DNA of 64,000 bases from Escherichia coli (GTDB taxonomy: Bacteria > Pseudomonadota > Gammaproteobacteria > Enterobacterales > Enterobacteriaceae): NCBI RefSeq assembly GCF_003991155.1, contig NZ_CP031293.1, one strand, 5' to 3'. Numbering within the stretch: the stretch's first letter is position 1; the number at the start of each line of letters is the position of its first letter. Position numbers and translations under genes: made by a program. Positions 43,481 through 63,136 of this stretch are shown in pieces. The notes beneath the pieces are model-generated. The model worked only from the letters and a program-made list of their open reading frames with translations, was not told the origin of the DNA and searched no databases.

Positions 43481-43496
43481 TGGTGCGATAATAGGA
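43481..43496. repeat. attR-like imperfect direct repeat of the thrW 3' end (TGGTGCGATAATAGGA)
   Basis: Matches the tRNA 3' end at 63061-63077 (TGGTGCCGATAATAGGA) except for a 1-nt deletion; same orientation. Confidence 0.55.
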
Positions 43497-43557
43497 ACAA
43501 TACACATAGGCGATAAGCTTTGTTTTTGTTGCCTTTTTTATTGTTCATTTTTTATAG

Positions 43558-43580
43558 ATACCCCCAAAAGTACCCCCATA
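43558..43580. repeat. island-terminal 23-mer ATACCCCCAAAAGTACCCCCATA (putative arm-type integrase site)
   Basis: 22 of 23 identical to 62927-62949 at the other island end, same orientation. Confidence 0.5.
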
Positions 43581-43697
43581 TCTTTTTCCGCCCCTGAAAT
43601 TTGGTTGTTATTCATACAGCATATCAGGCGGTAACGCTCTCCCTTTAACCCACTTATTGTATGATAGTGCTATCCCACAATAAGGAATCAGCCAGCC

Positions 43698-44057
43698 ATG
43701 AGAATGACCAGTCGCAAAAAAGAGATACTTAGCTACTTTGAACCGGATAACCTCGAATGGGTGACTGGTGAGATTGGTGCGCCGCCGTTCGATGTGTCGG
43801 GTGTGGCCTACCTGCTTCATGGCATGGTGTCGTTCGATAAGCGTCACCAGCTCGAATCAACCCGGCGAACACTGGAAAGCATGGTTGCTGGTGGACTGCT
43901 TGAGCGGGTGACAGTGTATGAATCGCGCCAGATACGGCGCGGCGGTGATACTAACGCAACGGTCGTGCGCTACGGTTTACCCGGTCAGTGCGCTGTTATG
44001 CGCGATACTGGCGGCGCTGACAACGCAATATCAGGTGAATACATGCGGGTCAGTTAA
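43698..44057 (+). CDS. hypothetical protein (119 aa), first island gene at the attR side
   Basis: ORF with AAGGA SD; upstream inverted repeat CTTATTGT..ACAATAAG; 3' end overlaps the convergent gene by 8 bp. Confidence 0.5.
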   Translation: MRMTSRKKEILSYFEPDNLEWVTGEIGAPPFDVSGVAYLLHGMVSFDKRHQLESTRRTLESMVAGGLLERVTVYESRQIRRGGDTNATVVRYGLPGQCAVMRDTGGADNAISGEYMRVS

Positions 44058-44592
44058 TAGCCTGCAATCTGTCGTTGATGCGGCTCAGGTCGTAAACCCG
44101 GCGTTCAATATCCAGCATCAGGAAATTGTGGATCTCGGCCTGCTCAGGATTATCAGACTCTCTGGCCTGTAATAGCAATTCATTGTAACCATGCAAGCCG
44201 CCTGAGTTTTCCGCCGGGGTGGTGCCTTTCCCACGCAGGCAGCTAATGGGCTGATTACTCGTATCGTGTGTTTGCTTCTCCAGCACAATGACGCAATCCC
44301 ACCAGTCGCCAAAGTCATACGTGTAAACCAGCTTGTCACCCTCATTCTGGAGCGCCGCCCATAGTGGCGTGATTGCCGCGTTACCCATGCTTTCATCCTC
44401 ACCCCATACGCGATACTCGCTACCTGGATCACCTTTACGCCCTTTCTCGAACATATACAGGTGTTCGTCATTCCAGCCAAAAGCTAACTGGATCACGGCA
44501 TGAAGTTTACTAAAGGGGATTTGCTCTGGAACCAGCACACGCCGCCATATAGGTGGTTTGCTGTCTCGGATGGTTATCTTTAGCTGGTACAT
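44050..44592 (-). CDS. pRiA4b ORF-3-like family protein (180 aa)
   Basis: N-terminal motif YQLKITIRDSKPPIWRRVLVP as I recall for the PRiA4_ORF3 domain family; function unknown. Confidence 0.6.
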   Translation of the reverse strand: MYQLKITIRDSKPPIWRRVLVPEQIPFSKLHAVIQLAFGWNDEHLYMFEKGRKGDPGSEYRVWGEDESMGNAAITPLWAALQNEGDKLVYTYDFGDWWDCVIVLEKQTHDTSNQPISCLRGKGTTPAENSGGLHGYNELLLQARESDNPEQAEIHNFLMLDIERRVYDLSRINDRLQAIN

Positions 44593-44712
44593 GCAAATCC
44601 TGAATAAATGCGAATCGGAAGGATAACGATACTGACGTACTCACAATTCTGTAAAGGTGAATAAAGGAAATTTGCTTAATACGCATAAGTTACATGTGGA
44701 ATAATCCCATAT

Positions 44713-44898
44713 CTACCTGCGCGGCGCTGGCTTCTTCCACTGGTAGGCAGGTGCTCGCATCATTTCGCGGAACCTGTCGCGCCGGGCTATATCGGCATTA
44801 ACTGATCGTTCTATCTCCCGTTGATCTGCCTGTGTAAGCTGGTGGCCTCCGTGCTCAAGTTTGGCGATGGTCAATAAGGCTATTTCGCGTGGTGTCAT
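44713..44898 (-). CDS. hypothetical small protein (61 aa)
   Basis: ORF with AGAGGG SD-like sequence; no recognisable domain. Confidence 0.35.
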   Translation of the reverse strand: MTPREIALLTIAKLEHGGHQLTQADQREIERSVNADIARRDRFREMMRAPAYQWKKPAPRR

Positions 44899-45123
44899 AC
44901 GTCATACCCTCTGGAAGGATGAAACACGCCCGGATTAAATTTCATTTTTCGCGGGTATAAAAAAACGATGGGGCGGGCAGTCCCGGATAGTCAGGGCTGT
45001 AGAGATTTGACTACCCCCTCCCCACTGGATTCAGGTTACTGCTATTCCGTTAAGCGCTGCTTACGGGGATAGCTGCGTTGTGATTTTGACCATTCAGGTC
45101 GCCGCTATTTCCTCACCGATTGG

Positions 45124-45156
45124 GTGCTACGCGCGCGCGTACTTGTCCCGAAATAC
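45124..45156. repeat. copy 1 of repeat TGCTACGCGCGCGTACTTGTC..AAATA.CAG (contains palindrome ACGCGCGCGT)
   Basis: Near-identical to 46518-46550; related partial copies at 46755-46770 and 46807-46835. Confidence 0.6.
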
Positions 45157-45195
45157 CAGAAACCGCCAGCCAGAGGATGATTTCCCTCTGGTGGT

Positions 45196-45477
45196 CTACC
45201 TTTGCCTCTTGCCGCCATTTAACCGGAAGGCGTTACCGTTCGGTTGCGCTATCCCCATGCGGTGTTGCGTTTCGGTAACAGCTTTATGCAGGTCGCCAAA
45301 TTCCTCAACCTTCACGGGCGGGCGCTTCACGTTCTCCAGACACGTTTCACGGCGGCGCTTTATCCATTCCCGATCATCGTCCTCGGTGCATAACAGCATG
45401 ACTTCCATCCATCGTGCGGCAGCTCTCCGGTATAGCCCTTTTGACTCCAGCTCTTCAGCTTTCCTGTCCCTTATCAT
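45196..45477 (-). CDS. PerC-family transcriptional activator-like protein (93 aa)
   Basis: N-terminal motif MIRDRKAEELESKGLYRRAAARWMEVM resembles PerC/Pch family as I recall it; GAGG SD and TATAAT -10 upstream. Confidence 0.5.
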   Translation of the reverse strand: MIRDRKAEELESKGLYRRAAARWMEVMLLCTEDDDREWIKRRRETCLENVKRPPVKVEEFGDLHKAVTETQHRMGIAQPNGNAFRLNGGKRQR

Positions 45478-45513
45478 TTCTGCCTCTCAGATTATATAGA
45501 TAAGCAAAAAGGT

Positions 45514-45634
45514 GTTGGTTCAGTTGGTTCAGTTGGTTCAATTTGTAAAGATCGTTGTTTTTATTGTGTTTTTTCTGAAATGTTGAACCAACATCAACTC
45601 ATTTTGAACCAACACAGCCCAGCTCTGAACCAAC
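45514..45634. repeat. iteron module A: 3 tandem GTTGGTTCA, AT-rich spacer, 3 copies of the complementary TGAACCAAC
   Basis: Copies at 45514-22, 45523-31, 45532-40 and complementary copies at 45584-92, 45605-13, 45626-34. Confidence 0.7.
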
Positions 45635-45736
45635 AACACAGCGATAGCTTTGTGATTGGTCCGTTATTTTCTGGCTGATATTTGAGCGTATAACAGTGTT
45701 ATACAGTGGTATACTGTATGGATATTACTCACTGAT

Positions 45737-46192
45737 ATGGTCTTTGCAATGAGCAAATCTAATCTGATCGCGTTCCGCATCCCATCTGAATTGCAGGATG
45801 AGTTTAATCGGTCTGTTCTCGCTTCTGGAGGGGATAAAACCTCCTGGCTTGTTGATGCGATTCGCATGAAGCTGGGACAGCCGGAAAAGTCTATTGATTC
45901 ACGAATGCTTGGGCTGGTGGAGCGCATGGAAAAAGCCGCTGCGTCGCTTATTGCCGGAAAGCCGAACATCCCACCAAAGCCATATAACGAAACGGCAGTT
46001 ATAAAGATCATTGCCGATACCATCCAACAGGGATTTGATAATGGGCGTGTGATAGCTGAACGGATCAATGAAGCAGGCTATCAAACAAAAGCTGGTAAAG
46101 CGTGGGATAAAGATATTTACAGCGCGTGGAAGCGTCAGGGAAGCAATGCTGAAAAGTTAAAAGCGGTGATTGATTGTAAGGTCAGCGTATAA
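45737..46192 (+). CDS. putative ribbon-helix-helix (CopG/Arc-like) DNA-binding protein with extended C-terminus (151 aa)
   Basis: N-terminal IAFRIPSELQDEFNRSV...KTSWLVDAIRMKL resembles an RHH beta-strand plus helix; start may be the Met at 45749. Confidence 0.45.
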   Translation: MVFAMSKSNLIAFRIPSELQDEFNRSVLASGGDKTSWLVDAIRMKLGQPEKSIDSRMLGLVERMEKAAASLIAGKPNIPPKPYNETAVIKIIADTIQQGFDNGRVIAERINEAGYQTKAGKAWDKDIYSAWKRQGSNAEKLKAVIDCKVSV

Positions 46193-46271
46193 ACATGAGT
46201 GCCCATTGGAAAGCTGCTTGGGCCAATACCTTTATACACCAGCAGGTGGTGACGATAGGTGAGGATTAGGC

Positions 46272-46493
46272 ATGAAAGGCAGAACGCCACACATTGAACA
46301 TCAAGCCAACCACTTCTCGGATGTTCGCAATGAGATGATTGCCATTCGCGGTGATATGCACGGCTTGGAGCGTCGAATTATTGATAAGATTGATGAAAAT
46401 AGAGATAAGGCCAGTGAAAATCAAAAGTGGATCATCGGCCTGTTGATTTTATCAATTCTTATCCCGCTACTTATCGCATTGGTCACAAAATGA
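46272..46493 (+). CDS. small tail-anchored membrane protein (73 aa)
   Basis: GAGGA SD; charged coiled-coil-like N-terminus and single C-terminal TM helix (WIIGLLILSILIPLLIALV). Confidence 0.5.
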   Translation: MKGRTPHIEHQANHFSDVRNEMIAIRGDMHGLERRIIDKIDENRDKASENQKWIIGLLILSILIPLLIALVTK

Positions 46494-46517
46494 ATATCCA
46501 ATGTGTATGCTGTCGAT

Positions 46518-46550
46518 GCTACGCGCGCGTACTTGTCGCAAAATATCAGG
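46518..46550. repeat. copy 2 of the ACGCGCGCGT-ACTTGTC repeat
   Basis: TGCTACGCGCGCGTACTTGTCGCAAAATATCAG, near-identical to copy 1. Confidence 0.6.
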
Positions 46551-46754
46551 CAAAGGCCAGATTCAGAAATTCGTGATAACCACCAGCACAACATGAGAGG
46601 TCATGTAACGCGATTTATCACACCAGATACATGTGATTGGTGTACCCGCATAAAACATCGTCATAGCGCGTCCTGTGCGCATATACGCCGATAATCAACA
46701 CATCACCACCACTCTGTCTCATGTAGAGAACAGTTTTATGGTACTCCCCTCCAT

Positions 46755-46835
46755 CGTGCGCGTACTGGTCGGACGTAGTTGCAAAATTTTTTGCAACTGA
46801 TACCCCTCGCGCGCGTACTGGTCACGAAATTGGTG
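46755..46835. repeat. copies 3 and 4 (partial) of the GCGCGCGTACTGGTC repeat flanking palindrome GTTGCAAAATTTTTTGCAAC
   Basis: CGTGCGCGTACTGGTC at 46755-46770; CGCGCGCGTACTGGTCACGAAATTGGTG at 46807-46835; 20-bp perfect palindrome at 46777-46796. Confidence 0.5.
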
Positions 46836-47036
46836 TTTTGCTGTGGCAGTGATATCAGAAAAATCTTCCTGTTTCACATAAAGCGGATATGCGCGTAATG
46901 TAACGGCCCCATCAACTGGGAGCGGATTTGAGCCCGAATGTGTAGGCAATGTCACTTAACGTTTGTCGCATACCTTCCAGAAAAAGCGATTCATGAATAA
47001 TAGGGGCATGAATGCCCGGCGTACCGGGCTTATTAG

Positions 47037-47735
47037 TTAATTTGGTGCTTTAGGGTCAACATTAAAAGTTATATCACCTTCTGTATTTTTCCCGGCATAG
47101 CTAGCGGCTATTCTCGCCAACCCTTTGTAATCAGCAATTCCATCAGACTGTTGCGAGACGACTGAGCTACCAACTTTCCATAACATATTAATCTGCCGAT
47201 TATTGAGATAAGCCTTGGCATCAAACGACTGGAGTATCACCCCTGCGCCGTAGAACGTGTCCGTCACAGTTGTGTTATACGCGCCAGTAATTCCATAAGT
47301 AGGCGTATAAACTGTTGTTGCCGTTCCAGTGGTATTAGCTGTACCGTAGCCACCACCATAACTATTGAACGTGGTGTTCGAGTTTCCGTACGTTGTTGCT
47401 GAGCTCACACCAGTTTGCCCGTATATTGGGATGGTTACATTACGAGTATTTGAAATGGCCCCGCTTCTCAAAAAGTTCAAGAGAATTACCTGGTCAGCCA
47501 ATTTTTCATCTTTAACTTGTGTATATCCTTGGCTTGATAAACTGGCGGCTACTACCGTAGCTATTTGAGTGTATTCAATCTGTTTGGTGTTCCAAAGTTC
47601 TTGGCTTGCGGGGATGATCAAGAACTTCTTACCGACAGATTGCCCGGAAGATAAAGCATTGACCGTTACTAACGGTTTTTGTACGCATCCAGCCAATAAT
47701 GACAGGGATAATATTAAAAGAAGATTTTTAATCAT
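47037..47735 (-). CDS. lipoprotein (232 aa) with Gly/Thr/Tyr-rich central region
   Basis: Lipobox LLAGC in signal peptide MIKNLLLILSLSLLAGCVQ; low-complexity middle; tandem hairpins downstream of the stop. Confidence 0.7.
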   Translation of the reverse strand: MIKNLLLILSLSLLAGCVQKPLVTVNALSSGQSVGKKFLIIPASQELWNTKQIEYTQIATVVAASLSSQGYTQVKDEKLADQVILLNFLRSGAISNTRNVTIPIYGQTGVSSATTYGNSNTTFNSYGGGYGTANTTGTATTVYTPTYGITGAYNTTVTDTFYGAGVILQSFDAKAYLNNRQINMLWKVGSSVVSQQSDGIADYKGLARIAASYAGKNTEGDITFNVDPKAPN

Positions 47736-47885
47736 GATAATCTCACCTAAGAATTGCGTGGTTATAAATTATCATCACTGTAAGCGAATGTAAGCCACAG
47801 GCTCGTAATGTGATATGGAATTTTGATAGTTGGCTCAATATCAGTATGCCGTCCTTGGCTATTATGGTTTTGTTAGTTAGAGCGT

Positions 47886-50612
47886 CTATTCCCATTCGCT
47901 AACATCTTTCATGCCACTGAGGGTAGCTACAATCCCGGCCCTTGTCAGTTTCACGAATTCTTCAGCCCCAACGGCATCACGAATTGCTTTCATGGCAATT
48001 TTATTGGCCGAAAATCGTTTCTCTGCTGCGGCGATCGCTGCTGGTGATGCCCCTGCGCGCACTGCTTTTGTAGCTTCCTGAACGGCTTTCTCTATCGCAT
48101 ATCGACCACTTCTTGTCGCCCCAATCTTAGCCACAGCATTTCTTAGCGCGCCACCAGCAACCAAACCACTAATCGAACCAATTACACCACCGCCAAAGCC
48201 TCCAGCGATCGCACCTGACTGTTGAACTCCGTTCATAATCACGCCGACGATCTTTGGAAGGCCTGAATCGAGCGTTTTGAGAGCCTCAGTTGTTCTTCCC
48301 GTGCGCTCTACGTATCGCTGCGGTCTGGTACTGGCTTTAGCGAGTACACCGAACTCTTTCATCATTCTACCGAGATCTGGCGCATGACGACTGATGGCGT
48401 TTACATTCTGCTGGGTCATGAGCTTGGCAAAATACTGGATACCTGACTCTTCACCGATTCCTCCCTTCTCTCCCTGCGCCACAGCATGCTGAAGAATAGA
48501 TGCTATTGCAGGTTGGCGTTCTGCTTCCGGCAGCGCGGAGATAAGACGGTGAAAAGCTCCCGTTCCAGTGTTTGCGGATGCCTTAAGCGTATCGGCACCT
48601 TTTCTTACCATAGCGTCTGATGCGAGATCTCGACCAAAAACAGATTCGGCATTTTGTTTGGCGATAATGTAACTTTTAGAGAGATCGTTAGCTTTCTGCC
48701 ATTCTGTGAGGAAGTTTCCTTTTTCAGCCATGATGCGCATGTCATCAGTGATAGCTCTGCGCATTTCTCCGGCAATCCGGGCGGCATTGGCCTTACCTGC
48801 CCGGGTGTTTGCTTGTTCAGCATCAGCAAACTTAGCACGCCATGCCTTCATCCCGTCGAAGGTTATGCCGCCACCTTGGTTGTTGGCAGCCTGAAACTGT
48901 TTCATCTCCGGGCTGAGTGGAACATTGGCTGCTTTTTCTGCTTGGACGACAGCCATCCCATTACTCATTTTCATCCTTTCGCGTGGCATCGTGCTTCGCA
49001 GTTCTGCCCATGCCATATTCTCTGCTGTTTTCATATCACTGAGGCTCGCGATGATGCGCTCTTTAATTGCTGCGCTTTTTTCTGATGCGCTTCCAGACTC
49101 AGCACCGAAATCAGACAACTGCTTATTCAACTTTGAGGATATTTCATTGAAGGCCGTAAGGTGAGCATCCTGAACATTCCCAGGAGTTGATGCCAGAACA
49201 CCTTCTGCTTGGGCAATTCCACGACTACCTGAGCGCATTCCAGGCGTCAGGGTGTTGATATTAATACCAGTGATTTTCGCCGCCTTAGCGACATCATCTC
49301 TGACGTTTGATGCCTGCGATGCGATATGCTCTCGGCCTACGGCAGAACGCGCTGCTTTCGATACATCATTGGCGGTTTCCAGAGTATTTGCTGCCCCTAA
49401 CACATGGCCTGATTGATTTGTATTACTCCGCAATACATCTCGCATTACGTCACTGGCTGTCTGTCCGCTCTTTATTAAAGCGCGTGCTCCTAGCGATCCT
49501 GCTAGGCCAATACCTGTCTCTTTTGCTAGGTCTTCTGGGCTGATCTGCCCGTTCTTTTGGGCGTTCACCAATGTACCTGGCAGGTTTTCTGCCAACATAC
49601 TAGCCACCTTTGTGGCCGCACGTTCAGCACGTGGAGCGTTGGCAACTGAAGAAGCTGCGGTAGCTGCCTTTCCTGCACCTAATCCTGTAATAAGGTAAGG
49701 TGCTAGCTGCTCACCAGCCTGCGCGTATGGATCTGTAGGTTGGTCTACTGGGCGAAAGACAGGTGATATGGGCGTGTATGTGCCATCACCCACACCAAGC
49801 TTCTGAGCTGCCCATGCTCCGGCTGATTGCGCCGCATTGACTACCCCCACGCCTGCGTCCATTACATCAAACGGTATATTAGCAATCCCTCTGGCCATCT
49901 GCTCTGGCGCAGCTTTCAGTCCTGGCGAAAGATATTCCATCTCAGGATTAAGGTTAGACTTGGCTACTTGCTGCTGCGGTTCCCCGGCATTTTCATCGGC
50001 GAGAAACTGAGCTCTTTTCTGCTCCCATGAACTGGCTGTTGGTAGTCCTGCTTCTATGTTCTTAAATTGCTGACGTTTTGCTTCCCATGCAGAAATATCT
50101 CCCACCTGAGAGATTTCTTTATCAAGCTCTGAGTAGTCAGGCTGCTGAAGATTGCGATGTTGACTGGTTTGTGCAAACTGCAAGATTTCACTGTCATCAG
50201 GGATTATTCCGGCATCTGCAAATTTACTTACGTAATTAGCCGTTTCATCTGGCAGTGTAGATTTACCGTTTCTGACGGCATTAATACGAGCATAGCCAGA
50301 ATTATACCCAGCCAATGCCATACCTATATCACCAAATCGCTTCATTCCTTTATTGAGATGGTTTGCTGCGATATCCATTTGCTTTTCAAATGGCAGTGAG
50401 CGCGGATCTGTTCCACGATAACCAGCATCACTCATTACTGAGGGCATCAGTTGAGCAAATCCTCTAGCTCCTTTCGGTGACTCGGCACTTCCGTTACCAC
50501 TAGATTCATTGCCAACTAATGTTTCCATCGTCCCTGATGGGAAACCATATTTTTCATCGAGATGACGGGAATAGGCTTTCTGTTTTTCTGTCAGTTGTGC
50601 CATCATTGCCAT
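47886..50612 (-). CDS. large protein (908 aa) with N-terminal lytic transglycosylase (SLT) domain and long alpha-helical Ala/Lys-rich body
   Basis: SLT motifs near N-terminus (GNESSGN...ESPKGARGFAQLMP...ALAGYNSGYARI); start overlaps upstream gene stop. Confidence 0.8.
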   Translation of the reverse strand: MAMMAQLTEKQKAYSRHLDEKYGFPSGTMETLVGNESSGNGSAESPKGARGFAQLMPSVMSDAGYRGTDPRSLPFEKQMDIAANHLNKGMKRFGDIGMALAGYNSGYARINAVRNGKSTLPDETANYVSKFADAGIIPDDSEILQFAQTSQHRNLQQPDYSELDKEISQVGDISAWEAKRQQFKNIEAGLPTASSWEQKRAQFLADENAGEPQQQVAKSNLNPEMEYLSPGLKAAPEQMARGIANIPFDVMDAGVGVVNAAQSAGAWAAQKLGVGDGTYTPISPVFRPVDQPTDPYAQAGEQLAPYLITGLGAGKAATAASSVANAPRAERAATKVASMLAENLPGTLVNAQKNGQISPEDLAKETGIGLAGSLGARALIKSGQTASDVMRDVLRSNTNQSGHVLGAANTLETANDVSKAARSAVGREHIASQASNVRDDVAKAAKITGININTLTPGMRSGSRGIAQAEGVLASTPGNVQDAHLTAFNEISSKLNKQLSDFGAESGSASEKSAAIKERIIASLSDMKTAENMAWAELRSTMPRERMKMSNGMAVVQAEKAANVPLSPEMKQFQAANNQGGGITFDGMKAWRAKFADAEQANTRAGKANAARIAGEMRRAITDDMRIMAEKGNFLTEWQKANDLSKSYIIAKQNAESVFGRDLASDAMVRKGADTLKASANTGTGAFHRLISALPEAERQPAIASILQHAVAQGEKGGIGEESGIQYFAKLMTQQNVNAISRHAPDLGRMMKEFGVLAKASTRPQRYVERTGRTTEALKTLDSGLPKIVGVIMNGVQQSGAIAGGFGGGVIGSISGLVAGGALRNAVAKIGATRSGRYAIEKAVQEATKAVRAGASPAAIAAAEKRFSANKIAMKAIRDAVGAEEFVKLTRAGIVATLSGMKDVSEWE

Positions 50613-51922
50613 CCCTTAAGTTTTGCCTGATAGTAACTTTCCGGCAGATAGCCATGTGCGGTCACATAATCCTTAACCAGTGAAGGATCCTGCAACAGCA
50701 TTTTGGTATCAGTTTCTTCGTCCTTAGATTTGGTTACAGGAATACCGAGCCCGGCAATCTGTCGTTTCTGCATTCGAATAATTACGTCCTGCGCTTTATT
50801 CAACTCTCGCAAAAATGCCTCATTGCTGGTTGCTGACTTAATGCCATTTTGAGATTGCATAAGGGCAGCCCTTTCCCCTTCGGTTGGGTTAGAGCCAAAA
50901 GTCCCTTTGAGGCTAGGCAGAATAACCTTTAGGTTGTATTCATCAGCTTTGGCGCGTAGGCTTCGTGTGTCTTCTGCTACATCAGGAAGGAATCCAAACC
51001 CCAGCGTCAGGGGGTTATAGTTCTGCGAGCGGGTAACGGCCGAAGGATGTTTCCCTACAATTCCCGCCAGTTCATGACCCACTTCAAGCGCAGAGTTCAA
51101 GGAGTCGATGTTACCTACAACAGTATTAATTTTATCGTTCATCTTCTCCACTTTCGCCTGCTGTACCTTGCTCAGTTCAGCATTGAGCTTGTCTCTCTCG
51201 ATGTCATTTTGAGCACGTCCAAGTCGTGCTTTCAGAACCATTTCTCTCGTGCGTAGTTGGTTATCGGATAGGACTTTGAACTGCTCCATATCGAGACGTC
51301 GATTACCCTGTTCCGCATTAACCTGAGCATTATATGCGGATGTATCTGCGTTCTGCTGTGCAATGCTCTGCCCTTGCTGCTTCTCTTGAACACTAAAGTA
51401 ACTATTTGGATCAGCATGGAGGTGGATGAGGTCAGTGATTCTGTTGAATTCCTGTGGGTCATTCTGCCAAGACTGATAAACCTCTTCAGCAGGAAGACCA
51501 AATCGCTGTAATACTGGATTTGCCTGCTGAATGGCCTTCTGCATGGTCAGTGGATCTCCAGTTTGTGACGCAAGACGCAGATTCATGGCAGCGTCAGCGG
51601 TCTGTCGATTTTGCTCAGCATCAATGAATCCCATCTGTTTTTGAGAATCAGCCATAAACTGGGGATACTGGGCCATTAACTTCTGCACGCCAACACGATC
51701 ATTATTAGCTACCGCACTACCCAACCGTGCCTGATATTCTTTTAACTGCTGGGAAATTTGCGCCTGCTGATTAATCTCAGCAACGCCTCTTAGCCCCTGT
51801 AGCGCCATTAAACCTACGTTTGGCTGCTGCTGATACTGCACAGGCTGAGGAACGGAAGAACGAGGAGCATTATCATTTTGCGGTGCCATGCTAGGCAGCC
51901 CGCCAAGTTGCCATGTCGCCAT
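50603..51922 (-). CDS. Gln-rich coiled-coil protein (439 aa), co-transcribed with the SLT protein
   Basis: Long ORF, translationally coupled on both sides; Q/A/N-rich helical composition. Confidence 0.7.
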   Translation of the reverse strand: MATWQLGGLPSMAPQNDNAPRSSVPQPVQYQQQPNVGLMALQGLRGVAEINQQAQISQQLKEYQARLGSAVANNDRVGVQKLMAQYPQFMADSQKQMGFIDAEQNRQTADAAMNLRLASQTGDPLTMQKAIQQANPVLQRFGLPAEEVYQSWQNDPQEFNRITDLIHLHADPNSYFSVQEKQQGQSIAQQNADTSAYNAQVNAEQGNRRLDMEQFKVLSDNQLRTREMVLKARLGRAQNDIERDKLNAELSKVQQAKVEKMNDKINTVVGNIDSLNSALEVGHELAGIVGKHPSAVTRSQNYNPLTLGFGFLPDVAEDTRSLRAKADEYNLKVILPSLKGTFGSNPTEGERAALMQSQNGIKSATSNEAFLRELNKAQDVIIRMQKRQIAGLGIPVTKSKDEETDTKMLLQDPSLVKDYVTAHGYLPESYYQAKLKGWQ

Positions 51923-52599
51923 TAGAATCCAAGCCCCCCAACAAGACCAATAAGCCCACCACCAATAGCGCCGGCCGCAGTTCCTATTCCAGGAACAACG
52001 GAACCAAGTTGCGCACCCGCTAAAGCGCCTGATGCTGCCCCACCAATACCACGCGCAAGACTGGATGGCTGCTGCGCCTGACCTGCACGAATAGCGCCAA
52101 GCCCCTGCAAGAGTTGTCCGGTATTATTGGCGTAGTTTTGCCCTGCCGTTGCCTGCCCTGATGCCGCATTCATCCCGACATTTAGCAGGTTTCCATAATT
52201 TTGCATTTGCCCACTAAGCCAATTGTTATAAAGCATGGGCGCAATGGAAGATAACTGGTTACTGGTAGCTGTTGAGCCAAGCCCCCCGGTAGCTTCTGCT
52301 GAGACAAGGTTCTGATAACGGGCCTGATCTGCCTGTGTTTTATATAAACCAGAACCAAAGAAATCATTCGCGGCTTTATTCTGCCCTTCCAGAGTCATCA
52401 GTCCTTGCAGTTGTTGTAAAGCAGGCAATCCGACTTCTGCATACGGCTTGAGATTATTCATCACCGTATTCCACTGCTCGCGCTGCAAATCAATTGCCTG
52501 CTGCTGGGCCTTCGCCTGAGCTTTAGAGGCACCACCATCACCGCCTTTTTCGTATACGGCACGATTGAGATGTTTATGAGCTATATGGGTAATTAACAT
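51922..52599 (-). CDS. Gly-rich protein (225 aa) with C-terminal Gly/Ala hydrophobic tail
   Basis: C-terminus GIGGAASGALAGAQLGSVVPGIGTAAGAIGGGLIGLVGGLGF; coupled to neighbours. Confidence 0.65.
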   Translation of the reverse strand: MLITHIAHKHLNRAVYEKGGDGGASKAQAKAQQQAIDLQREQWNTVMNNLKPYAEVGLPALQQLQGLMTLEGQNKAANDFFGSGLYKTQADQARYQNLVSAEATGGLGSTATSNQLSSIAPMLYNNWLSGQMQNYGNLLNVGMNAASGQATAGQNYANNTGQLLQGLGAIRAGQAQQPSSLARGIGGAASGALAGAQLGSVVPGIGTAAGAIGGGLIGLVGGLGF

Positions 52600-53054
52600 T
52601 CGCTGAATTCCTTATATTGTTGCCGAGTTAACTGATAAAGCGTTACGCCGACGGGTTTACCACATCTGATATAAGCATCATCAAGGTGACCAACACGGGT
52701 AGCGCCAAGCAAACGGATAATTGCCCGTCCATATTTTGTGGTGTCAGGAACCATAGTGATGCTGTTAAGGAATGGTGAGTTTTCGAGAAGCCATTTGCAG
52801 AATAATCGATGCCCTTGCAGTGCATATTCACCACGGAATCCGGGGTCGTACACCGCATGGCATTCAACAACGCTATGCCAGAAGTTACGCACTTCATGAA
52901 CGCCAGCCAGCACTAATCCTTCGTAGATGCCGAGATATACCGCATCAGGCTTGATGTAGTACGTGTGCCCCGGCTCAACAATATTTTCGGTATTGCCTGG
53001 CTCGTTAAGAAAGGCCTGTAATCGCACAGGGTTATCAATAAATTTTAGTTCCAT
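52593..53054 (-). CDS. hypothetical protein (153 aa), first large gene of the SLT operon
   Basis: ORF overlapping the downstream gene start; no recognised motif. Confidence 0.6.
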   Translation of the reverse strand: MELKFIDNPVRLQAFLNEPGNTENIVEPGHTYYIKPDAVYLGIYEGLVLAGVHEVRNFWHSVVECHAVYDPGFRGEYALQGHRLFCKWLLENSPFLNSITMVPDTTKYGRAIIRLLGATRVGHLDDAYIRCGKPVGVTLYQLTRQQYKEFSEC

Positions 53055-53070
53055 GCGATGCCATCCATTT

Positions 53071-53232
53071 TCACATACAGCCTGCCAGCGCCTTATCTAT
53101 TAACCCTCGTGCAATTTCATGCAGAGTTGGCGCTACTCCAATTCCTGATTTTTTACGCTGCTCTTCCTGAATTTTCTTTATCGCTTCCATTTGCTTCTCA
53201 CTTATCAATACCGGCTTTACTGAAATAGCCAT
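53071..53232 (-). CDS. small putative DNA-binding protein (53 aa, possibly ribbon-helix-helix)
   Basis: ORF 53071-53361; start placed at MAISVKPVL with GGGGG SD 4-5 nt upstream; LexA-like box just upstream. Confidence 0.45.
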   Translation of the reverse strand: MAISVKPVLISEKQMEAIKKIQEEQRKKSGIGVAPTLHEIARGLIDKALAGCM

Positions 53233-53248
53233 AACGCCCCCCTTAGAA

Positions 53249-53264
53249 CTGTATAAAACAACAG
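53249..53264. promoter_or_regulatory. candidate LexA (SOS) box CTGTATAAAACAACAG
   Basis: CTGT-N8-ACAG with AT-rich centre; about 17 bp upstream of the 53-aa gene start; nearby TATAAT-like hexamer on the minus strand. Confidence 0.5.
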
Positions 53265-53681
53265 TTATTATAGTTTCACAAATCGCAATATTCATCATCG
53301 TAATTGCAAAATATGAAACAAATAGCACAAAAAAATGCCACCGCTCAGTAGCTGGTGGCATCGTTCTGTGTGTCAGGTTTTGACAGGTTTTTTATGGACT
53401 CTAAAAACTATATTTATGGTATCGCATTACTCTTCACGGCAGGTGCTTTTCAGTTCTGCCCTTGCTTCTGGCTCCATTGGTAATTTGATTCGCGATCAGC
53501 TATGCGGATGGTTTGCTGAACAGGCATAACAACTTCTCAGAGGCTGTTTTTTGAACTACGAAAATTTCGTAGTGCTCACTTTCAAAAACGTCACGCCCTT
53601 GTACACAGGATTTTACGAAAGTCTCGTAAAACACTCTCTGATGCCAGCCAGGTGTTGTGCGCATCAATTCAGTCACATTGT

Positions 53682-53792
53682 GTCGGTTCAAAATACCGTG
53701 TTGTTGGTTCAGTGTTGGTTCAATAAAAAGAATAAAATCCTTATAAAACAATACACTTTACAAATTGAACCAACTGAACCAACTGAACCAAC
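53682..53792. repeat. iteron module B: inverted, diverged copy of module A
   Basis: GTCGGTTCA 53682-90, GTTGGTTCA 53704-12 and 53714-22, then tandem TGAACCAAC at 53766-74, 53775-83, 53784-92; spacer begins with reverse complement of the module A spacer (ATTTGTAAAG). Confidence 0.7.
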
Positions 53793-53817
53793 ACCTTTTC
53801 TACGCACATGAAGAAGC

Positions 53818-56577
53818 TCATTCTTCAGATGAGTTATAATCTCCTGGCTGGTAATTGAGTACATAAACGTTTATTTGTCGTCCCTGAATACGTGGTGATT
53901 TTCTTTGGTATCCACGACCGCTGTTTGGTGGGGTTAGCATCCCGGCTTTTTTCAACACTTCAGCAAACTGTTTTGCGTTGAAACCACATGCGATCTCCTT
54001 TTCAAATGTGGCCGGGAATGTGTAGAAAATCATTGGGCTTTCGTCATGTTCTCCACGCTGACGGTATCCGGCTAAATCTTTGATGGGCAAATCTGCCGGG
54101 CTGTATGGAAATGGTGCAAAACGGCTAAGCCCATAGGCATTAAGAAATGCCTCCGTTTGTTCAATAATCTGCTGATGCTCTTTGTTACCTGTGCCGAACT
54201 CGCGCAACCATGCGTTATAGCTGTGCTGTATCGCATCACGGCATGTCTGAGCATCCCAGCCTGTTACAACCTCGCCTAACAACAATGCGGCCTCCAGAAT
54301 GGCAAATCGCGCGGCTACACGGTGAACCTGCTCACCATAATCGGATGGGATCAGGCTTCTCCATCTGCTTTCGCAATCACGAACGGTTTTAATAGCCTGT
54401 TGCTGGTGGTGTGCCAGCCATTTAATCCACTCACGCCCGGACGCGCCGTGGTGATGCTGGTAAGCGTCTTTCAGTGCGTCTGCGTGCTGTTTTCCGTTCT
54501 GGTAATCGTGAAAGCGTACTGCTTTACTCAACGGAATATTCAGCAGTCGCACCAGTTGCCCGGCTTTGGTTTTTCGCCCGGAAGTAGCGATAAATGTTTC
54601 TAAATCCATTTCTCCGGTGCTGATTGCCACTGTACGCCAGCGTTTTAGATCCCGGTTTCCACCATCTTTAGCGCCTTGCAGTTTCCCTACACCGTTAAAT
54701 AACGCATAGGCAGACTGTGAAACGCTGACAGGATCAGCGCCCTGACCAACTTCATCAAGCGGCATTAGTCCGTCATTGTGGGCGGCGGCCTCATTTGCCA
54801 GCCCCAGCGCGGTTCCGTACCACGTCAGCCGCAGTAAATCAGGGTTGCCGTATAAGCTGCTCGCCACGTTTGCCGTGGTGGTCTTACCTGCGCTCGACTG
54901 CTCATAGAAATGAATGCCGAACCCGTCAGCGCCCACCAGCCCAATCAATGGCGCTGCCAGTGCTGCGCCGATCCCGGTCATCATTGAATAGTTACCAAAG
55001 GCCAGACGCGCCACGTTATCACGCCAGCTTTTCGCGCTCCCTGAGACGGTATATCCGGCTGCGGCTGAGCTTCTCCCGCTGAACAGCACAGGATTTTCAG
55101 GTGTTCCGATGATTTCCCCATCAGGCATGATGTACGCTCCGCATTGCCAGCCAGTGGCATGAGCAACACGCCACAATTCACGAGAGCCACTGCGTTGTAG
55201 CCAGTCTGCCAGTATTGCTCTGAGGCTGCTTTTGGTCGTGACATTTACCCCACCAGCTTTAAGTGTGCGCCATCCTTCACGTTCACCAATATCAGCCAGT
55301 GGAATGGCAGCGGTTGTCGGCGTTTCAGAACCAAACGACAGCCAGCGAAGAATGAGATACTGGTCTTTATCGTCTCTGCCAGTACCGATAACGCTTAACG
55401 GAGAACATAACCAGCTTTCGTTATTGATGATTTCTCCACTCTGGCTGTCAGCTCTCGGAGATACCCAATAAATACCATCCTCGCGGCTTTCTATTCTTGG
55501 TTTCAGTGGGTCGGTATCCATAACCTTAAAATCGCTTCCCTCAATGGTCTGTGGCTCCTGTTTCACGCCATTACCCTGTGGTTGGTACATTGACTTATTG
55601 AACGCTTCTGTGGCGCATTTAATGCCGTGTTTTTGGTGGTAATCATTCCAGTCTGCTTTGTGATCTGTCGGGGGTAATGCCACCCATCCAGAAACAGATA
55701 AAGCTGCTTTTTCTGCTGCTATTCTCCCCGTGTTTTGTCTTCCTTCGCTGTGGTCGTTATCCGCAGCAATGATGATTTGTGCTGAAGGAAATTTATCCCG
55801 CAGTACCTGGGCGACATATAACAGGTTCCCGGCATCAATCGCCGCCACTGTCAGCGCCTCTGGACGAATTAAATGGGCAGATAATGCCGTTGCCAGACCT
55901 TCTGCGATTAAGATGCTCTGTGTTGTTTCTGGTGCGTTTATGGCGTGATATGCCCCCCGCTTTGCTGAACCTGTCAGGAGTCTTTTTTCACCATGTGAGG
56001 TAATAGTCTGTGCTGCTGTGACTGCGCCGGATTTATCCACCAGCGCCAGCAACAGAGATCCATCGGGCAACACGGGGAATGTAAAATCACCTACCCCTTT
56101 CGCAACCAGATAATCAGATTTGCCGTTTACAGCCTTTCTGCGCATGTCATCAAACTGACGGGAAAACGTATCCCGTCTTTGTTGTTCGTCCTTCTCTGCC
56201 CTTTTCAGGCGCTCCTGTTCGCGTCGCTGGCGCTCGGTTTCCAGTTGTTCCCGTTTCTGGCTGGTGGCTTCTGGTGTTTCCGTTGTCCGGTAATCAATAC
56301 CCAGAACATCAGCGGCAAGAAGCGCCGCCTCTGTTGTGTCGCAGTTATTTACGCGTTTAATTAAATCCAGCCCATCACCAGCGCCGCACTGATTACAGAT
56401 GAAGCTACCGCGCCCGTTGTCATCGAACCGGAATCGATCTTTGCCCCCACATGCAGGGCAGGGAGCATGACGGCGCGGAGAGTCAGGGACATTTATGTTC
56501 AGGCAGCCCAGCACATGAGGCCAGTTGTTTTCAGACGCACTGATAACCTGACGGATAAGATCAATGTTTCGCATCAC
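53818..56577 (-). CDS. primase-helicase (P4 alpha-like): N-terminal zinc-ribbon primase plus C-terminal P-loop helicase/NTPase
   Basis: 919 aa; zinc ribbon CPACGGKDRFRFDD...CNQCGAGDG; Walker A YEQSSAGKTTT. Confidence 0.85.
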   Translation of the reverse strand: MMRNIDLIRQVISASENNWPHVLGCLNINVPDSPRRHAPCPACGGKDRFRFDDNGRGSFICNQCGAGDGLDLIKRVNNCDTTEAALLAADVLGIDYRTTETPEATSQKREQLETERQRREQERLKRAEKDEQQRRDTFSRQFDDMRRKAVNGKSDYLVAKGVGDFTFPVLPDGSLLLALVDKSGAVTAAQTITSHGEKRLLTGSAKRGAYHAINAPETTQSILIAEGLATALSAHLIRPEALTVAAIDAGNLLYVAQVLRDKFPSAQIIIAADNDHSEGRQNTGRIAAEKAALSVSGWVALPPTDHKADWNDYHQKHGIKCATEAFNKSMYQPQGNGVKQEPQTIEGSDFKVMDTDPLKPRIESREDGIYWVSPRADSQSGEIINNESWLCSPLSVIGTGRDDKDQYLILRWLSFGSETPTTAAIPLADIGEREGWRTLKAGGVNVTTKSSLRAILADWLQRSGSRELWRVAHATGWQCGAYIMPDGEIIGTPENPVLFSGRSSAAAGYTVSGSAKSWRDNVARLAFGNYSMMTGIGAALAAPLIGLVGADGFGIHFYEQSSAGKTTTANVASSLYGNPDLLRLTWYGTALGLANEAAAHNDGLMPLDEVGQGADPVSVSQSAYALFNGVGKLQGAKDGGNRDLKRWRTVAISTGEMDLETFIATSGRKTKAGQLVRLLNIPLSKAVRFHDYQNGKQHADALKDAYQHHHGASGREWIKWLAHHQQQAIKTVRDCESRWRSLIPSDYGEQVHRVAARFAILEAALLLGEVVTGWDAQTCRDAIQHSYNAWLREFGTGNKEHQQIIEQTEAFLNAYGLSRFAPFPYSPADLPIKDLAGYRQRGEHDESPMIFYTFPATFEKEIACGFNAKQFAEVLKKAGMLTPPNSGRGYQRKSPRIQGRQINVYVLNYQPGDYNSSEE

Positions 56578-56932
56578 CGTACCCCACGTGGTCTATAGCG
56601 TTTGCGATATGGCTAACCAGCATCTGCCACTTGGTTATTCCGTAATCAGTCAGCATGCCATCATTGTTTAGCCACATATCAAATTCAGCGGTTGTCGCAA
56701 GTTTCCACTTATCGCCGTGGACAGTCCTCATTGCTGGGTACATGAATGCGCAAATCAGATCACAAACATCTGACGGCTTCAGAGATGTAGTAATGGTGCG
56801 TCCCTCTGGCGTCTGAATTGCCATTTTCTCTTCACCAGTAGAATGAAGGTTATGAATCCACACAGCACCAGCAATCTTTGCCACCTGCTCTCCGATTGCG
56901 GAGCTAAGCGCCATTTCTGCATTTTCACGCAT
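56561..56932 (-). CDS. hypothetical protein (123 aa), overlaps primase start
   Basis: ORF in coupled chain; 3' end overlaps primase start by 17 nt. Confidence 0.55.
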   Translation of the reverse strand: MRENAEMALSSAIGEQVAKIAGAVWIHNLHSTGEEKMAIQTPEGRTITTSLKPSDVCDLICAFMYPAMRTVHGDKWKLATTAEFDMWLNNDGMLTDYGITKWQMLVSHIANAIDHVGYGDAKH

Positions 56933-57266
56933 GAGAACCTCCCGCTACAGTTGCGCCCATGTCATTAACCATGCTTTGCCATATCTCACGCCCGACGTCA
57001 GTCAATCCGTCCTTAGTGACGCAACGTTCAAGAAGCTCGATCCCCACGGTTTCCCACTGCGGGTAGAACACTTTCATGGCTGCCAGTGTGTAGCTATCGA
57101 TCAGGCTGCGAACGCCTTTTACTCCATTGACGATTTCCACACGGACGGCCTCGCCGTCCGCATCAACCATGAAATAGTCCCCGCCGCTGGTGGAGGTAAT
57201 GTGGTTATACAGTGCCGACGCATACTTATTTGCCAGCGCATTCAGTCGGAAATTTTTAGTAATCAT
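56925..57266 (-). CDS. hypothetical protein (113 aa)
   Basis: ORF in coupled chain; 8-nt overlap with downstream gene. Confidence 0.55.
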   Translation of the reverse strand: MITKNFRLNALANKYASALYNHITSTSGGDYFMVDADGEAVRVEIVNGVKGVRSLIDSYTLAAMKVFYPQWETVGIELLERCVTKDGLTDVGREIWQSMVNDMGATVAGGSHA

Positions 57267-57276
57267 GGCTCCATCC

Positions 57277-57879
57277 TCAGTGCGTCACTGGTTCCGCTGG
57301 CATGCCGTTTTCATTCAGTTCAGCTATAAAGCTGTTGTGAAGTTCAGCAAGCGTTTCACGCCCAAATGGAGTCAGTGCTCCTTGTTCCACATCCATCATG
57401 GCTCTGTAGAAAATAATGGCGCGTTCTGTGCCAGACTCGATGCCAAAACGTTCTATCATCGCGCCCTCAATGTTGTTTGCCATAGCGAGGCGCTCTGCTA
57501 CTGGATACAGCGGCATGGCGACGATGCCGTTGGAATAAACAGCCACTTCGGAAGGATTGCCAGTATCATCAATGATGCTGACAGTGCCGTTTTCCTCTCT
57601 CATTTCCAGCATGAATACTGTTGCGATCAGCCATCTCCACATAATGACGTTATGCTGTGATGTGTAATCGAAATATCCCTGGTTACCGCCATCGGCAATA
57701 GCGAGATGTATTGACATACCTTCATCTGGTTTATCGTCATAATCCCCGGCATCCAGACGATTTACGGCATCAATATATGAGATGGCCTCAACGCGTTCTG
57801 TCATGCCATCGTTGCTGCGGTACATGATGTTTACGCCGTCAGGCGTTGCTTCTGCATGGAAAGTTAAGAAATTATTCAT
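57277..57879 (-). CDS. hypothetical protein (200 aa)
   Basis: ORF 57277-57984; start placed at MNNFLTFHAEA where ATG overlaps upstream stop (CATGAATAA). Confidence 0.55.
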   Translation of the reverse strand: MNNFLTFHAEATPDGVNIMYRSNDGMTERVEAISYIDAVNRLDAGDYDDKPDEGMSIHLAIADGGNQGYFDYTSQHNVIMWRWLIATVFMLEMREENGTVSIIDDTGNPSEVAVYSNGIVAMPLYPVAERLAMANNIEGAMIERFGIESGTERAIIFYRAMMDVEQGALTPFGRETLAELHNSFIAELNENGMPAEPVTH

Positions 57880-58093
57880 GTTTCGCCTCGCCTGAATGAT
57901 TCTGTAACTCATATTTGCCCAACAATTCGTCCGCTTCCTGAATAGCTTCTGGTACGCCATTGAGCAGTGACATAACCGCGCCAATCATTAACTTGTCTCT
58001 GTTGCTGGGGCTGGCCCCTTCAAGCCAGAACCCTAAAACAGTCTGAACCTGTTCGATGCGACATTGCGCTTCAATGAGCTGGATGTTGGTCAT
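57872..58093 (-). CDS. hypothetical small protein (73 aa)
   Basis: Start overlaps upstream stop (ATGA). Confidence 0.5.
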   Translation of the reverse strand: MTNIQLIEAQCRIEQVQTVLGFWLEGASPSNRDKLMIGAVMSLLNGVPEAIQEADELLGKYELQNHSGEAKHE

Positions 58094-58353
58094 TTCGCAC
58101 TCTCCACATCGATTAAACCGATATCTATCAGGGAGGTAACTTTTTGTAGCCAGCTATTGATTACTGTCGCCTGTTCCCCTCCCACCGAGGGAACAATCTC
58201 ATTCATCACATGAACCAGACCTGTGCGCGCTCTGGTAAGCCGTTCAGTCGCGCAATCTGCGGGAGTGAATGTGTCTGGATATGGCTCTTCACGCCCCAGC
58301 AATGATTCAATTTCCAGCTCACACGGATGACGATAAATTAAGTTGATATTCAT
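58090..58353 (-). CDS. hypothetical small protein (87 aa)
   Basis: Start overlaps upstream stop (ATGA). Confidence 0.5.
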   Translation of the reverse strand: MNINLIYRHPCELEIESLLGREEPYPDTFTPADCATERLTRARTGLVHVMNEIVPSVGGEQATVINSWLQKVTSLIDIGLIDVESAK

Positions 58354-60606: not shown

Positions 60607-60618
60607 TTTCAGTCTCCG

Positions 60619-62895: not shown

Positions 62896-62926
62896 TTGGG
62901 GGTACCTCCACTAAACCGAACAGCAA

Positions 62927-62949
62927 ATACCCCCATAAGTACCCCCATC
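62927..62949. repeat. island-terminal 23-mer ATACCCCCATAAGTACCCCCATC (putative arm-type site), partner of 43558-43580
   Basis: 22 of 23 identity with the distal copy, same orientation. Confidence 0.5.
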
Positions 62950-63060: not shown

Positions 63061-63136
63061 TGGTGCCGATAATAGGAGTCGAACCTACGACCTTCGCATT
63101 ACGAATGCGCTGCTCTACCAACTGAGCTATATCGGC
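63061..63136 (-). tRNA. thrW: tRNA-Thr (anticodon CGU)
   Basis: Reverse complement is GCCGATATAGCTCAGTTGGTAGAGCAGCGCATTCGTAATGCGAAGGTCGTAGGTTCGACTCCTATTATCGGCACCA: 7-bp acceptor stem, D, anticodon and T arms fold; anticodon CGT; encoded CCA. Confidence 0.95.

Follow-up and report, generated by a model that had tools for sequence, protein, structure and literature searches.

A perC regulator, a putative second origin and a cargo cassette at the distal end of an EcCIMP1-like island of Escherichia coli

Genes and features of the locus

The window considered here is a 64,000-nucleotide stretch of Escherichia coli DNA (RefSeq assembly GCF_003991155.1, contig NZ_CP031293.1). Between its positions 45,196 and 46,493 lie three genes: a perC homologue, the gene of a DNA-binding protein of 147 aa with a ribbon-helix-helix-like (RHH-like) N-terminus, termed RHH147, and the gene of a small tail-anchored membrane protein of 73 aa, termed TA73. 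An earlier note, made from the sequence alone, had named these three open reading frames (ORFs) and the CG-rich repeats that bound them; all three frames are present, and repeat copies at 45125-45160 and 46517-46550 indeed flank them. It had missed an element in the perC/RHH147 intergenic region, where three plus three inverted TGAACCAAC iterons flank an AT-rich core (45514-45634, site 1). The region probably joins three functionally separate elements, namely a perC regulator, a second replication origin and a cargo cassette, at the distal end of a phage-inducible chromosomal island (PICI) related to EcCIMP1.

The island spans 19.6 kb from att core to att core (43487-63077). The positions of the two cores place the whole three-gene region inside it, and together with tRNA-Thr(cgt) they bear out the previous assignment of the region to a thrW island. 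The core repeat is also the core published for EcCIMP1 (Pick, Stadel & Raivio, ISME J 2025; PMC11773190), a PICI that resides in E. coli MP1 and has the P22-like phage Kapi1 as its helper. RefSeq genomes of identical sequence show an integrase, AlpA, AntA/Ash, a TOPRIM/DUF927 primase, DUF2824 and homologues of P22-type ejection proteins in an island that adjoins tRNA-Thr. The hallmarks of a PICI are found together: integrase, AlpA, a pri-rep gene with an adjacent iteron origin, att repeats, a length of 10-20 kb, and no capsid, tail and lysis gene set.

EcCIMP1 (L055) is about 98% identical to the island in DNA sequence by blastn, to the left and right of a replaced cassette. Both occupy the same integration site with the same att core, are similar in size (20.0 kb, compared with 19.6 kb here) and share a backbone of int, alpA, antA, ash, the TOPRIM/DUF927 primase, DUF2824, the P22-type ejection-protein homologues, a lipoprotein gene, perC, p61 and PRiA4_ORF3, including an identical PerC protein and iteron arrays at both sites. 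They differ in what lies between site 1 and CG copy B: a p61 paralogue and alpA_1 (EcCIMP1_023) in EcCIMP1, RHH147 and TA73 here. With gene identities and island borders established, the island is, by sequence, an EcCIMP1-like PICI, and the region is its distal end. Helper-dependent excision, circularisation, replication and transduction have been demonstrated for EcCIMP1, no terS was identified in it, and its transduction rate was reported as low (PMC11773190); the paper is silent on iterons, a second origin, a hotspot, RHH147 and TA73. The coordinates of all features are collected in Table 1.

Table 1. Features of the three-gene region and of the island around it
Feature	Position	Strand	Basis or remark
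Distal att core repeat TCCTATTATC, 10 bp	43487..43496		Exact match to 63068-63077 within tRNA-Thr
CG motif copy A (consensus GCGCGTACTKGTCNCGAAAY)	45125..45160	+	Some 40 bp past the perC stop codon
perC homologue, EcCIMP1_025 (WP_000617443.1)	45196..45477	-	93 aa; Pfam PerC; identity to the EcCIMP1 protein
Site 1 (putative auxiliary origin), tandem arm, 3 x GTTGGTTCA, 9-bp spacing	45514..45540		Homology with the tandem arm of site 2
Site 1, AT-rich spacer	45541..45583		Sequence; same layout as published for Gram-negative PICIs
Site 1, spaced arm, 3 x TGAACCAAC, 21-bp spacing	45584..45634		Also left edge of the exchangeable cassette
Exchangeable cassette	45636..46512		blastn junctions; other cargo in EcCIMP1, L004 and L003
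Palindromic operator GTATAACAGTGTTATAC	45688..45704		Directly upstream of an extended -10 (TGG TATACT, 45707-45715; by eye)
RHH147, 147-aa RHH-like + helix-turn-helix (HTH) DNA-binding protein, probable autorepressor, conserved hotspot flank	45749..46192	+	
TA73, 73-aa tail-anchored membrane protein, hotspot cargo	46272..46493	+	Hydrophobic tail; PHROG 6324
CG motif copy B	46517..46550	+	Right cassette junction
CG motif copies C and D (46758-46770, 46811-46823)	46758..46823	+	Hairpin between the copies
Site 2, primase-proximal origin, same TGAACCAAC iterons, inverted relative to site 1	53703..53792		Directly after the primase stop codon
TOPRIM/DUF927 primase-helicase, presumed iteron-binding initiator	53818..56577	-	Annotation; Pfam on an orthologue; C-terminal segment covaries with iteron
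tRNA-Thr (cgt), integration site	63061..63136	-	ARAGORN; Rfam tRNA

Two inverted iteron arrays

The iteron TGAACCAAC has 12 matches in the window, against 0.63 expected, and these fall into two clusters only, one at site 1 and the other at the primase-proximal site 2. Site 1 is the inverted homologue of site 2, and in E. coli, Rosenbergiella, Cedecea and Chimaeribacter each arm of the one aligns with the corresponding arm of the other. Loci L001, L012, L015, L024, L030, L035, L036 and L045 carry both arrays; the pair also recurs in islands of Rosenbergiella, Cedecea, Chimaeribacter, Pantoea, Erwinia and Klebsiella, and EcCIMP1, an element of proven mobility, carries complete 3+3 arrays at both sites. 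Among 5426 complete E. coli genomes, 562 contain the site 1 iteron region. The origin of Gram-negative PICIs has been described as two sets of iterons around an AT-rich region immediately after pri-rep (Fillol-Salom et al., ISME J 2018; PMC6092414). Site 2 is an exact fit to this description, and internally site 1 is arranged likewise; the published description, in the part of it available, differs in having no second, distal, inverted copy. In the literature consulted, the second origin array is undescribed.

The identity of the iteron varies between islands, and it varies in step with the primase. Primase-side origins carry TGAACCAAC, TGAACCGAC, TGAGACAAC, GTGTGTCA or TGGGATAA, depending on the island, and the extreme C-terminus of the primase tracks the iteron type: all TGAACCAAC islands encode the segment GRGYQRKSPRxxGRQxNV, and other iterons go with other segments. 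This segment is kept in the TGAACCAAC islands of Morganella and Proteus, though the central domain of the protein is just 58-62% identical there. In Buttiauxella izardii, TGGGATAA iterons lie upstream of the RHH147 gene. The same iteron, predicted for the primase-side origin, was found there in the extended locus, where nine matches (0.57 expected) form two clusters; the RHH147 protein and the operator of this species are of the usual type. Islands that lack the distal array have a doubled array of the same iteron beside the primase. Homology of the arrays and their covariation with the primase are thus established at the level of sequence, and this pattern would imply binding by the primase and a role of site 1 in replication. 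Two other readings were discarded. RHH147 does not suit the part of iteron-binding protein, given that the iterons change (to TGGGATAA in Buttiauxella) with its strand and operator constant, and that they track the primase C-terminus. Nor is the + strand ORF at 45080-45499 a remnant of a primase gene ending at site 1, as its product has no similarity to primase C-termini.

In satellite phage P4 the origin is bipartite: the alpha primase-helicase binds two sites, ori and crr. Alpha and a cognate site of it are also mentioned in PMC6092414. Since the iteron type of site 1 follows that of the primase-side origin and the primase C-terminus, the arrangement resembles P4 ori and crr. Like P4, the island is a small replicon encoding a primase-helicase and carrying two separated clusters of one short iteron, the presumed binding site of its initiator; the primase C-terminal segment covaries with this iteron, and the island has a C4/CI-type antisense RNA, as P4 does. 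Unlike P4, it lacks psu, delta and sid, its helper is P22-like rather than P2-like, and in some of its relatives both arrays are adjacent; the comparison is one of layout. The simplest reading of the arrays is a bipartite origin like P4 ori/crr, in which the role in cis is presumed. Site 1 would then be a second, inverted copy of the origin, bound by the C-terminal domain of the island primase-helicase, and it most likely works as an auxiliary, cis-acting, crr-like replication site. A TATAAT consensus on the - strand (45491-45496, by eye) puts the -35 position of perC on the first iteron, and because of this overlap site 1 may also couple perC expression to initiator occupancy.

Gene order differs around the two sites. 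In most genera the typical order is primase, origin, perC, p96 and onward, with RHH147 at the island end, often right after a 119-aa gene. E. coli islands have PRiA4_ORF3, p61, perC and site 1 between the 119-aa gene and RHH147. In both orders perC comes after an origin array. An inversion between the two inverted arrays was considered as the cause of the E. coli position of perC and set aside, because the gene order that it predicts differs from the one observed.

Exchangeable cassette and defence hotspot

The three genes had previously been described as a single cluster, a view that does not survive comparison with related islands. Pairwise alignment with EcCIMP1 and three other E. coli islands separates perC, which belongs to the conserved backbone, from the other two genes, which form an exchangeable cassette (45636-46512). 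On the left, homology to EcCIMP1, L002 and L004 ends at 45614-45635, inside the spaced arm of site 1; on the right, homology to all four other islands resumes at 46513, four bases before CG copy B. Between these junctions the cargo is RHH147 and TA73 here, RHH147 and AbiD in L003, two hypothetical proteins in L004, and a p61 paralogue with alpA_1 in EcCIMP1 and L002.

A wider survey with PADLOC and Pfam covered 67 ORFs, each of at least 140 aa, within about 2.7 kb downstream of RHH147 at 38 loci. AbiD was found five times and Shosta three times, together with PsyrA, PDC-M18A/B, SoFic, PDC-S04/S24, LmuA, PtuA, an RnlA toxin and a SocA antitoxin. With this content, the slot after RHH147 is, on sequence evidence, a defence hotspot of which RHH147 is the conserved flank. 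Defence hotspots have been described in P4-like satellites (Rousset et al. 2022; PMC9122126). The present slot resembles those of P4-like satellites and of PICIs with immune systems in its conserved flanks and its highly variable cargo, which includes known defence systems. It differs in belonging to another satellite family and in its flanks, which are RHH147 and site 1 on one side and the CG motif and a lipoprotein gene on the other.

The CG motif is a conserved 20-bp CG-rich element, GCGCGTACTKGTCNCGAAAY, that recurs at module junctions of the island family in several genera. The sequence GCGCGTACTKGTC has four exact copies in the window (45135, 46525, 46758 and 46811), each of them on the + strand, against 0.12 expected by chance, and copy B marks a real module junction. 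In Serratia and Buttiauxella the motif separates site 1 from the RHH147 promoter, and in Erwinia it closely follows RHH147; it is found elsewhere in the islands of Rosenbergiella and Providencia. Positions recorded for it in other islands include L009 9861, L023 9885 and L039 10445. Where an ORF overlaps it, the motif is read in different frames, which points to an element acting at the DNA level, and it may bind a protein or serve as an anchor for recombination. It gave no convincing fit as a sigma-54 or sigma-70 promoter or as an intrinsic terminator.

RHH147 and its operator

The second ORF (45737-46192, +) encodes 151 aa as read from its first start, whereas the conserved start at 45749, giving 147 aa, is used in RefSeq and in all homologues, which begin with MSKS. 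The family comprises 365 clusters at 90% identity, with 80 representatives among 1.84 billion. It is confined to Enterobacterales, shows 61-78% identity from E. coli to Providencia and Xenorhabdus, and has an invariant C-terminal motif. Uncorrected pN/pS values are 0.21-0.26, and 360 of the 5426 complete E. coli genomes carry the gene. No match to RHH147 was found by tblastn in 50,697 phage records.

The earlier description of this protein as RHH-like is supported indirectly, by its predicted structure, by its distant relatives and by its operator; a profile match of the protein itself to an RHH family is lacking. The AlphaFold2 model places helices at residues 13-25 and 30-42 after an unstructured, low-confidence segment (1-12), followed by a long helix and a confident helical C-terminal domain; a monomer cannot form the ribbon. 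The N-termini of distant homologues approach RHH models below threshold (RHH_1 19.1 against a cut-off of 20.5, NikA-like 20.5 against 27, TacA1 16.7 against 21). Their C-termini give hints of Recombinase and HTH_62, and one relative passes recombinase-like HTH models.

The operator GTATAACAGTGTTATAC is the sole full copy in the window. Across the family, 24 loci have a palindrome GTATAAC-N3-GTTATAC directly upstream of the extended -10, and in 24/24 of them the N-terminal strand of RHH147 reads S(N/T)L(V/I)AF; another 17 loci have the direct repeat TGTCTTAC-N2-TGTCTTAC, with the strand S(L/I)SVTF in 17/17. This co-switch of operator type and strand is established and is the most weighty line of evidence; it indicates that RHH147 is most likely an autorepressor whose ribbon recognises the palindromic operator. 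By binding the palindrome over its own promoter, RHH147 would keep transcription of its gene and of the downstream TA73 gene, presumably on one transcript, low and steady. The palindrome was rejected as a LexA box on inspection, as it reads CAG-N7-CTG and not CTG-N10-CAG.

An exact-pattern scan of IMG/VR for RHH147 operators returned 16 stretches and no target in helper phages: eight lie directly upstream of RHH147 homologues, one is in a truncated island fragment, and the rest are in unrelated contigs. A 106-kb metagenomic viral contig, 3300009788_000091 (L073-L075), contains at least six exact TGTATAACANNGTTATACA palindromes and no RHH147 homologue. Protein P0192 (175 aa) fuses an RHH147-type N-terminus to a C-terminal region with two hydrophobic segments, that is, an RHH domain to a membrane anchor. 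Three TGGATACC repeats lie upstream of alpA_1 in the EcCIMP1 cassette (L055 5290-5335) and three similar GGTATCCA repeats upstream of RHH147 in Morganella (L049 9609-9636); both may be the binding site of another regulator.

TA73, a tail-anchored membrane protein

Hydropathy bears out the earlier description of TA73 as a tail-anchored small membrane protein. Its N-terminus is hydrophilic (mean Kyte-Doolittle value -1.2), residues 54-72 form a single strongly hydrophobic C-terminal segment (19-residue maximum 2.95), and only K73 follows. TA73 would accordingly insert into the inner membrane by its C-terminal helix. It matches PHROG 6324 (E 3e-11) and, weakly, the holin family phrog_689 (E 0.0037); no endolysin or spanin gene that would accompany a holin is found nearby in the island. 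The family has 24 clusters, nearly all from E. coli, and is carried by 168 of the 5426 complete genomes. A Klebsiella phage match (44% identity) was also inspected, and its context proved uninformative.

One homologue is an 83%-identical copy in a P22-like prophage of E. coli E200086, where the gene lies between a gene-16 homologue and the tailspike gene, downstream of and co-directional with a Mnt-like Arc-family gene. In P22-like prophages the slot between gene 16 and the tailspike gene is occupied by sieA (Leavitt et al., mBio 2024; PMC10883804), and in P22 the immI/sieA region places mnt, orf59a and sieA between genes 16 and 9 (PMC10883804). The prophage copy of TA73, which lies between homologues of these two genes, thus has the position of SieA. 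The island arrangement is alike in that an RHH repressor gene is followed by a co-directional gene for a small inner-membrane protein, and in that both converge on a gene-16 ejection-protein homologue, with one lipoprotein gene in between in the island; a close TA73 homologue, moreover, fills the slot itself in a P22-like prophage. RHH147, however, has no detectable sequence similarity to the Mnt-like protein.

These observations make TA73 a candidate exclusion factor. The exclusion-like role previously suggested for it gains support from the prophage position. SieA proteins have about 160-200 aa, three to four transmembrane (TM) segments and the motif FxRYPxEAxxFNK (PMC10883804), P22 SieA having about 162 aa and three or more TM segments; TA73 has 73 aa, one hydrophobic segment and lacks the motif. 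The slot in common with sieA, its anchoring in the membrane and its place in a hotspot suggest, as a best guess held with low confidence, an exclusion or abortive role; TA73 would most likely act in the prophage state and against P22-like phages. The prophage link is undescribed in the literature consulted.

PerC

The perC gene is already known and characterised. Its product matches Pfam PerC (PF06069) over residues 1-85 of 93 with E 3.7e-30 and 104.5 bits (cut-off 22.6), which confirms the family membership proposed earlier, and also matches phrog_994 (E 1e-37). It is identical to EcCIMP1_025 in 93/93 residues, and the allele is present in 629 of the 5426 complete genomes. EcCIMP1_025 silences a LEE1-lux reporter for the enterocyte-effacement locus (LEE) in Citrobacter rodentium in a dose-dependent manner, whereas perC of enteropathogenic E. 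coli activated it (PMC11773190); its authors proposed it to be an ANR-type repressor, and PerC homologues from other PICIs were reported to have no LEE effect (PMC11773190). The suggestion that this protein cross-regulates other loci is therefore borne out experimentally, and the label of activator is contradicted for this exact protein. PerC shares with the PerC/Pch proteins a full-length Pfam PerC match, and its first 50 residues score just below the cut-off of the profile for ANR proteins such as Aar (NCBIfam NF033650, ANR_neg_reg, residues 5-50, 31.1 bits against 32); it differs from PerC/Pch in that the identical protein represses, and does not activate, LEE1. The gene belongs to the backbone of the island family; its product is probably a small PerC/ANR-type modulator that works through protein-protein contacts with host regulators and not as a classical activator.

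Other elements of the island

The segment 47886-53054 (-) encodes homologues of all three P22 ejection proteins, gp7, gp20 and gp16 (with an SLT domain), in addition to DUF2824. Buttiauxella orthologues match Pfam P22_gp7, Inj_translocase and Phage_P22_gp16; a satellite that encodes its own DNA-delivery proteins is unusual. The adjoining gene at 47037-47735 (-), which is also conserved in EcCIMP1, encodes a 232-aa lipoprotein that has the lipobox LAGC and weakly resembles TraT/DUF4136 (E 0.06-0.09). This lipoprotein is a candidate for the published, unexplained superinfection-immunity phenotype of that element. At 44050-44592 (-), between the 119-aa and 61-aa genes, lies a gene for a PRiA4_ORF3-family protein (E 1e-42) that, among the loci compared, occurs in E. 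coli islands only.

Two antisense-RNA matches adjoin ash/antA in the early region: Rfam C4 antisense RNA at 58996-59083 (-) with 79.5 bits (gathering score 45), and Rfam isrK at 59146-59223 (-) with 60.5 bits (gathering score 50). Together they suggest a P1/P4-type antisense-RNA immunity module in this PICI. At E <= 1 across the island, Rfam gave no match inside the three-gene region. L003 (E. coli CUPS04) is a related island at another chromosomal site, next to dinD/yicG. It has a DUF5906-type primase and GGTATAGGTGGTACAGGT-type iterons, with just two TGAACCAAC iterons of site 1 left; this mixture of iterons and primase points to module exchange between island lineages.

Weighing of alternatives

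Several observations weigh against the interpretation of the region as a regulator, a second origin and a cargo cassette. Concerted evolution by gene conversion could maintain the likeness of the two arrays even if they had no function. The sites do not differ in spacing everywhere (EcCIMP1 has 21/21 at site 2, as at site 1), roughly one in two RHH147 loci lacks an array adjoining the gene, and in Morganella L031 the repeats upstream of RHH147 (GGTACGCA) are unlike its origin (GTGTGTCA). RHH147 itself matches no Pfam RHH family at E <= 1, and Foldseek against PDB and a PDB sequence profile search returned nothing significant for it. The co-switch of operator and strand may be a single event that separates two clades, so that the 41 loci are not 41 independent observations. 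A consensus scan for promoters and terminators detected no site for perC, RHH147 or TA73, so the promoters are called by eye only. PADLOC, run on the three proteins and four neighbours, had no match and thus recognises neither RHH147 nor TA73. Finally, TA73 is unlike SieA in size and topology, and EcCIMP1 shows superinfection immunity (PMC11773190) without carrying the TA73 gene, so that this phenotype cannot be credited to TA73.

The earlier note had read RHH147 and TA73 as a regulator and effector pair, and PerC as a virulence-gene activator acting on chromosomal loci. A dedicated module of this kind, possibly toxin-antitoxin-like, would accord with the co-directional genes, the 79-bp gap, the Shine-Dalgarno sequence before TA73 and the lack of a terminator between the two genes, with weak hints of TacA, VapB-like and FitA-type antitoxins in distant RHH147 relatives, and with the weak holin PHROG match of TA73 (E 0.004). 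The two genes are adjacent and probably co-transcribed, but their pairing is not conserved: the families number 365 and 24 homologues, the genomes carrying them 360 and 168, and the 38 loci have different neighbours, with AbiD, Shosta, SoFic and other systems following RHH147 elsewhere, which does not fit a type II toxin-antitoxin pair. TA73 also stands behind the unrelated Mnt-like RHH gene in the P22-like prophage, and no PADLOC or toxin-family match was obtained. For PerC, the family membership holds and LEE cross-regulation by the identical protein is experimentally real, but the effect tested is silencing. This reading of the three genes is therefore judged unlikely. Similarly improbable is that RHH147 is not an autoregulated hotspot flank but serves the auxiliary origin as an accessory factor in replication or packaging. 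It could then regulate copy number, be associated with crr, or recognise pac in the manner of a small terminase, for headful packaging by the helper. Many genera do share the order array, CG motif, operator and RHH147 in a fixed geometry; in Photorhabdus and Xenorhabdus, RHH147 directly adjoins the 3' end of the primase gene; conservation is higher in this family than in the primase; and EcCIMP1 has no identified terS and a low reported transduction rate. Against this, EcCIMP1 lacks RHH147 and yet excises, circularises and undergoes transduction. Array and gene can each be found without the other: EcCIMP1, L002 and L004 have site 1 and no RHH147, and in L022, L039, L029 and Providencia no array adjoins RHH147. 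The operator also stays constant when the iteron type changes.

That site 1 is a functionless scar of recombination between tandem islands, with RHH147 and TA73 as passenger morons and the arrays alike by gene conversion only, seems very improbable. A rearrangement is indicated by perC, which lies beside the primase-side origin in most genera and beside site 1 in E. coli; L003, with its different primase type and different iterons, lacks the tandem arm and spacer of site 1, and the distal array is missing from many islands. Yet the geometry of three tandem iterons and three at 21 bp is intact in E. coli, Rosenbergiella, Cedecea, Pantoea, Mixta, Erwinia and Chimaeribacter at 62-68% protein identity, and the Serratia copy retains the iterons in a rearranged layout. 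In Buttiauxella the iteron type has changed in step at both sites, islands without the distal copy keep a second array beside the first, and RHH147 is under purifying selection. A bolder version of the preferred reading, with the separate elements made more specific, is doubtful when all its parts are required at once. It would combine a P4-like bipartite origin whose distal half is required in cis, TA73 as a new minimal single-pass inner-membrane exclusion protein that is traded between P22-like prophages and satellites and blocks DNA entry via gp16/gp20-type ejection proteins (of which the island encodes homologues), and RHH147 as an autoregulated driver of any cargo in the slot.

Implications

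The perC gene of this island should not be annotated as a virulence activator, as the identical protein is a published LEE silencer, and the satellite that carries it is found in commensals and pathogens alike. RHH147, its operator and the CG motif provide precise landmarks for a defence hotspot across Enterobacterales that can be used to mine anti-phage genes, and TA73 is a small and tractable candidate for such a gene. The EcCIMP1/Kapi1 system allows direct tests of both the second origin array and the link between TA73 and a prophage. If site 1 is truly a conserved second origin, it would change the view of replication in a widespread island family and provide a mechanistic link to P4.

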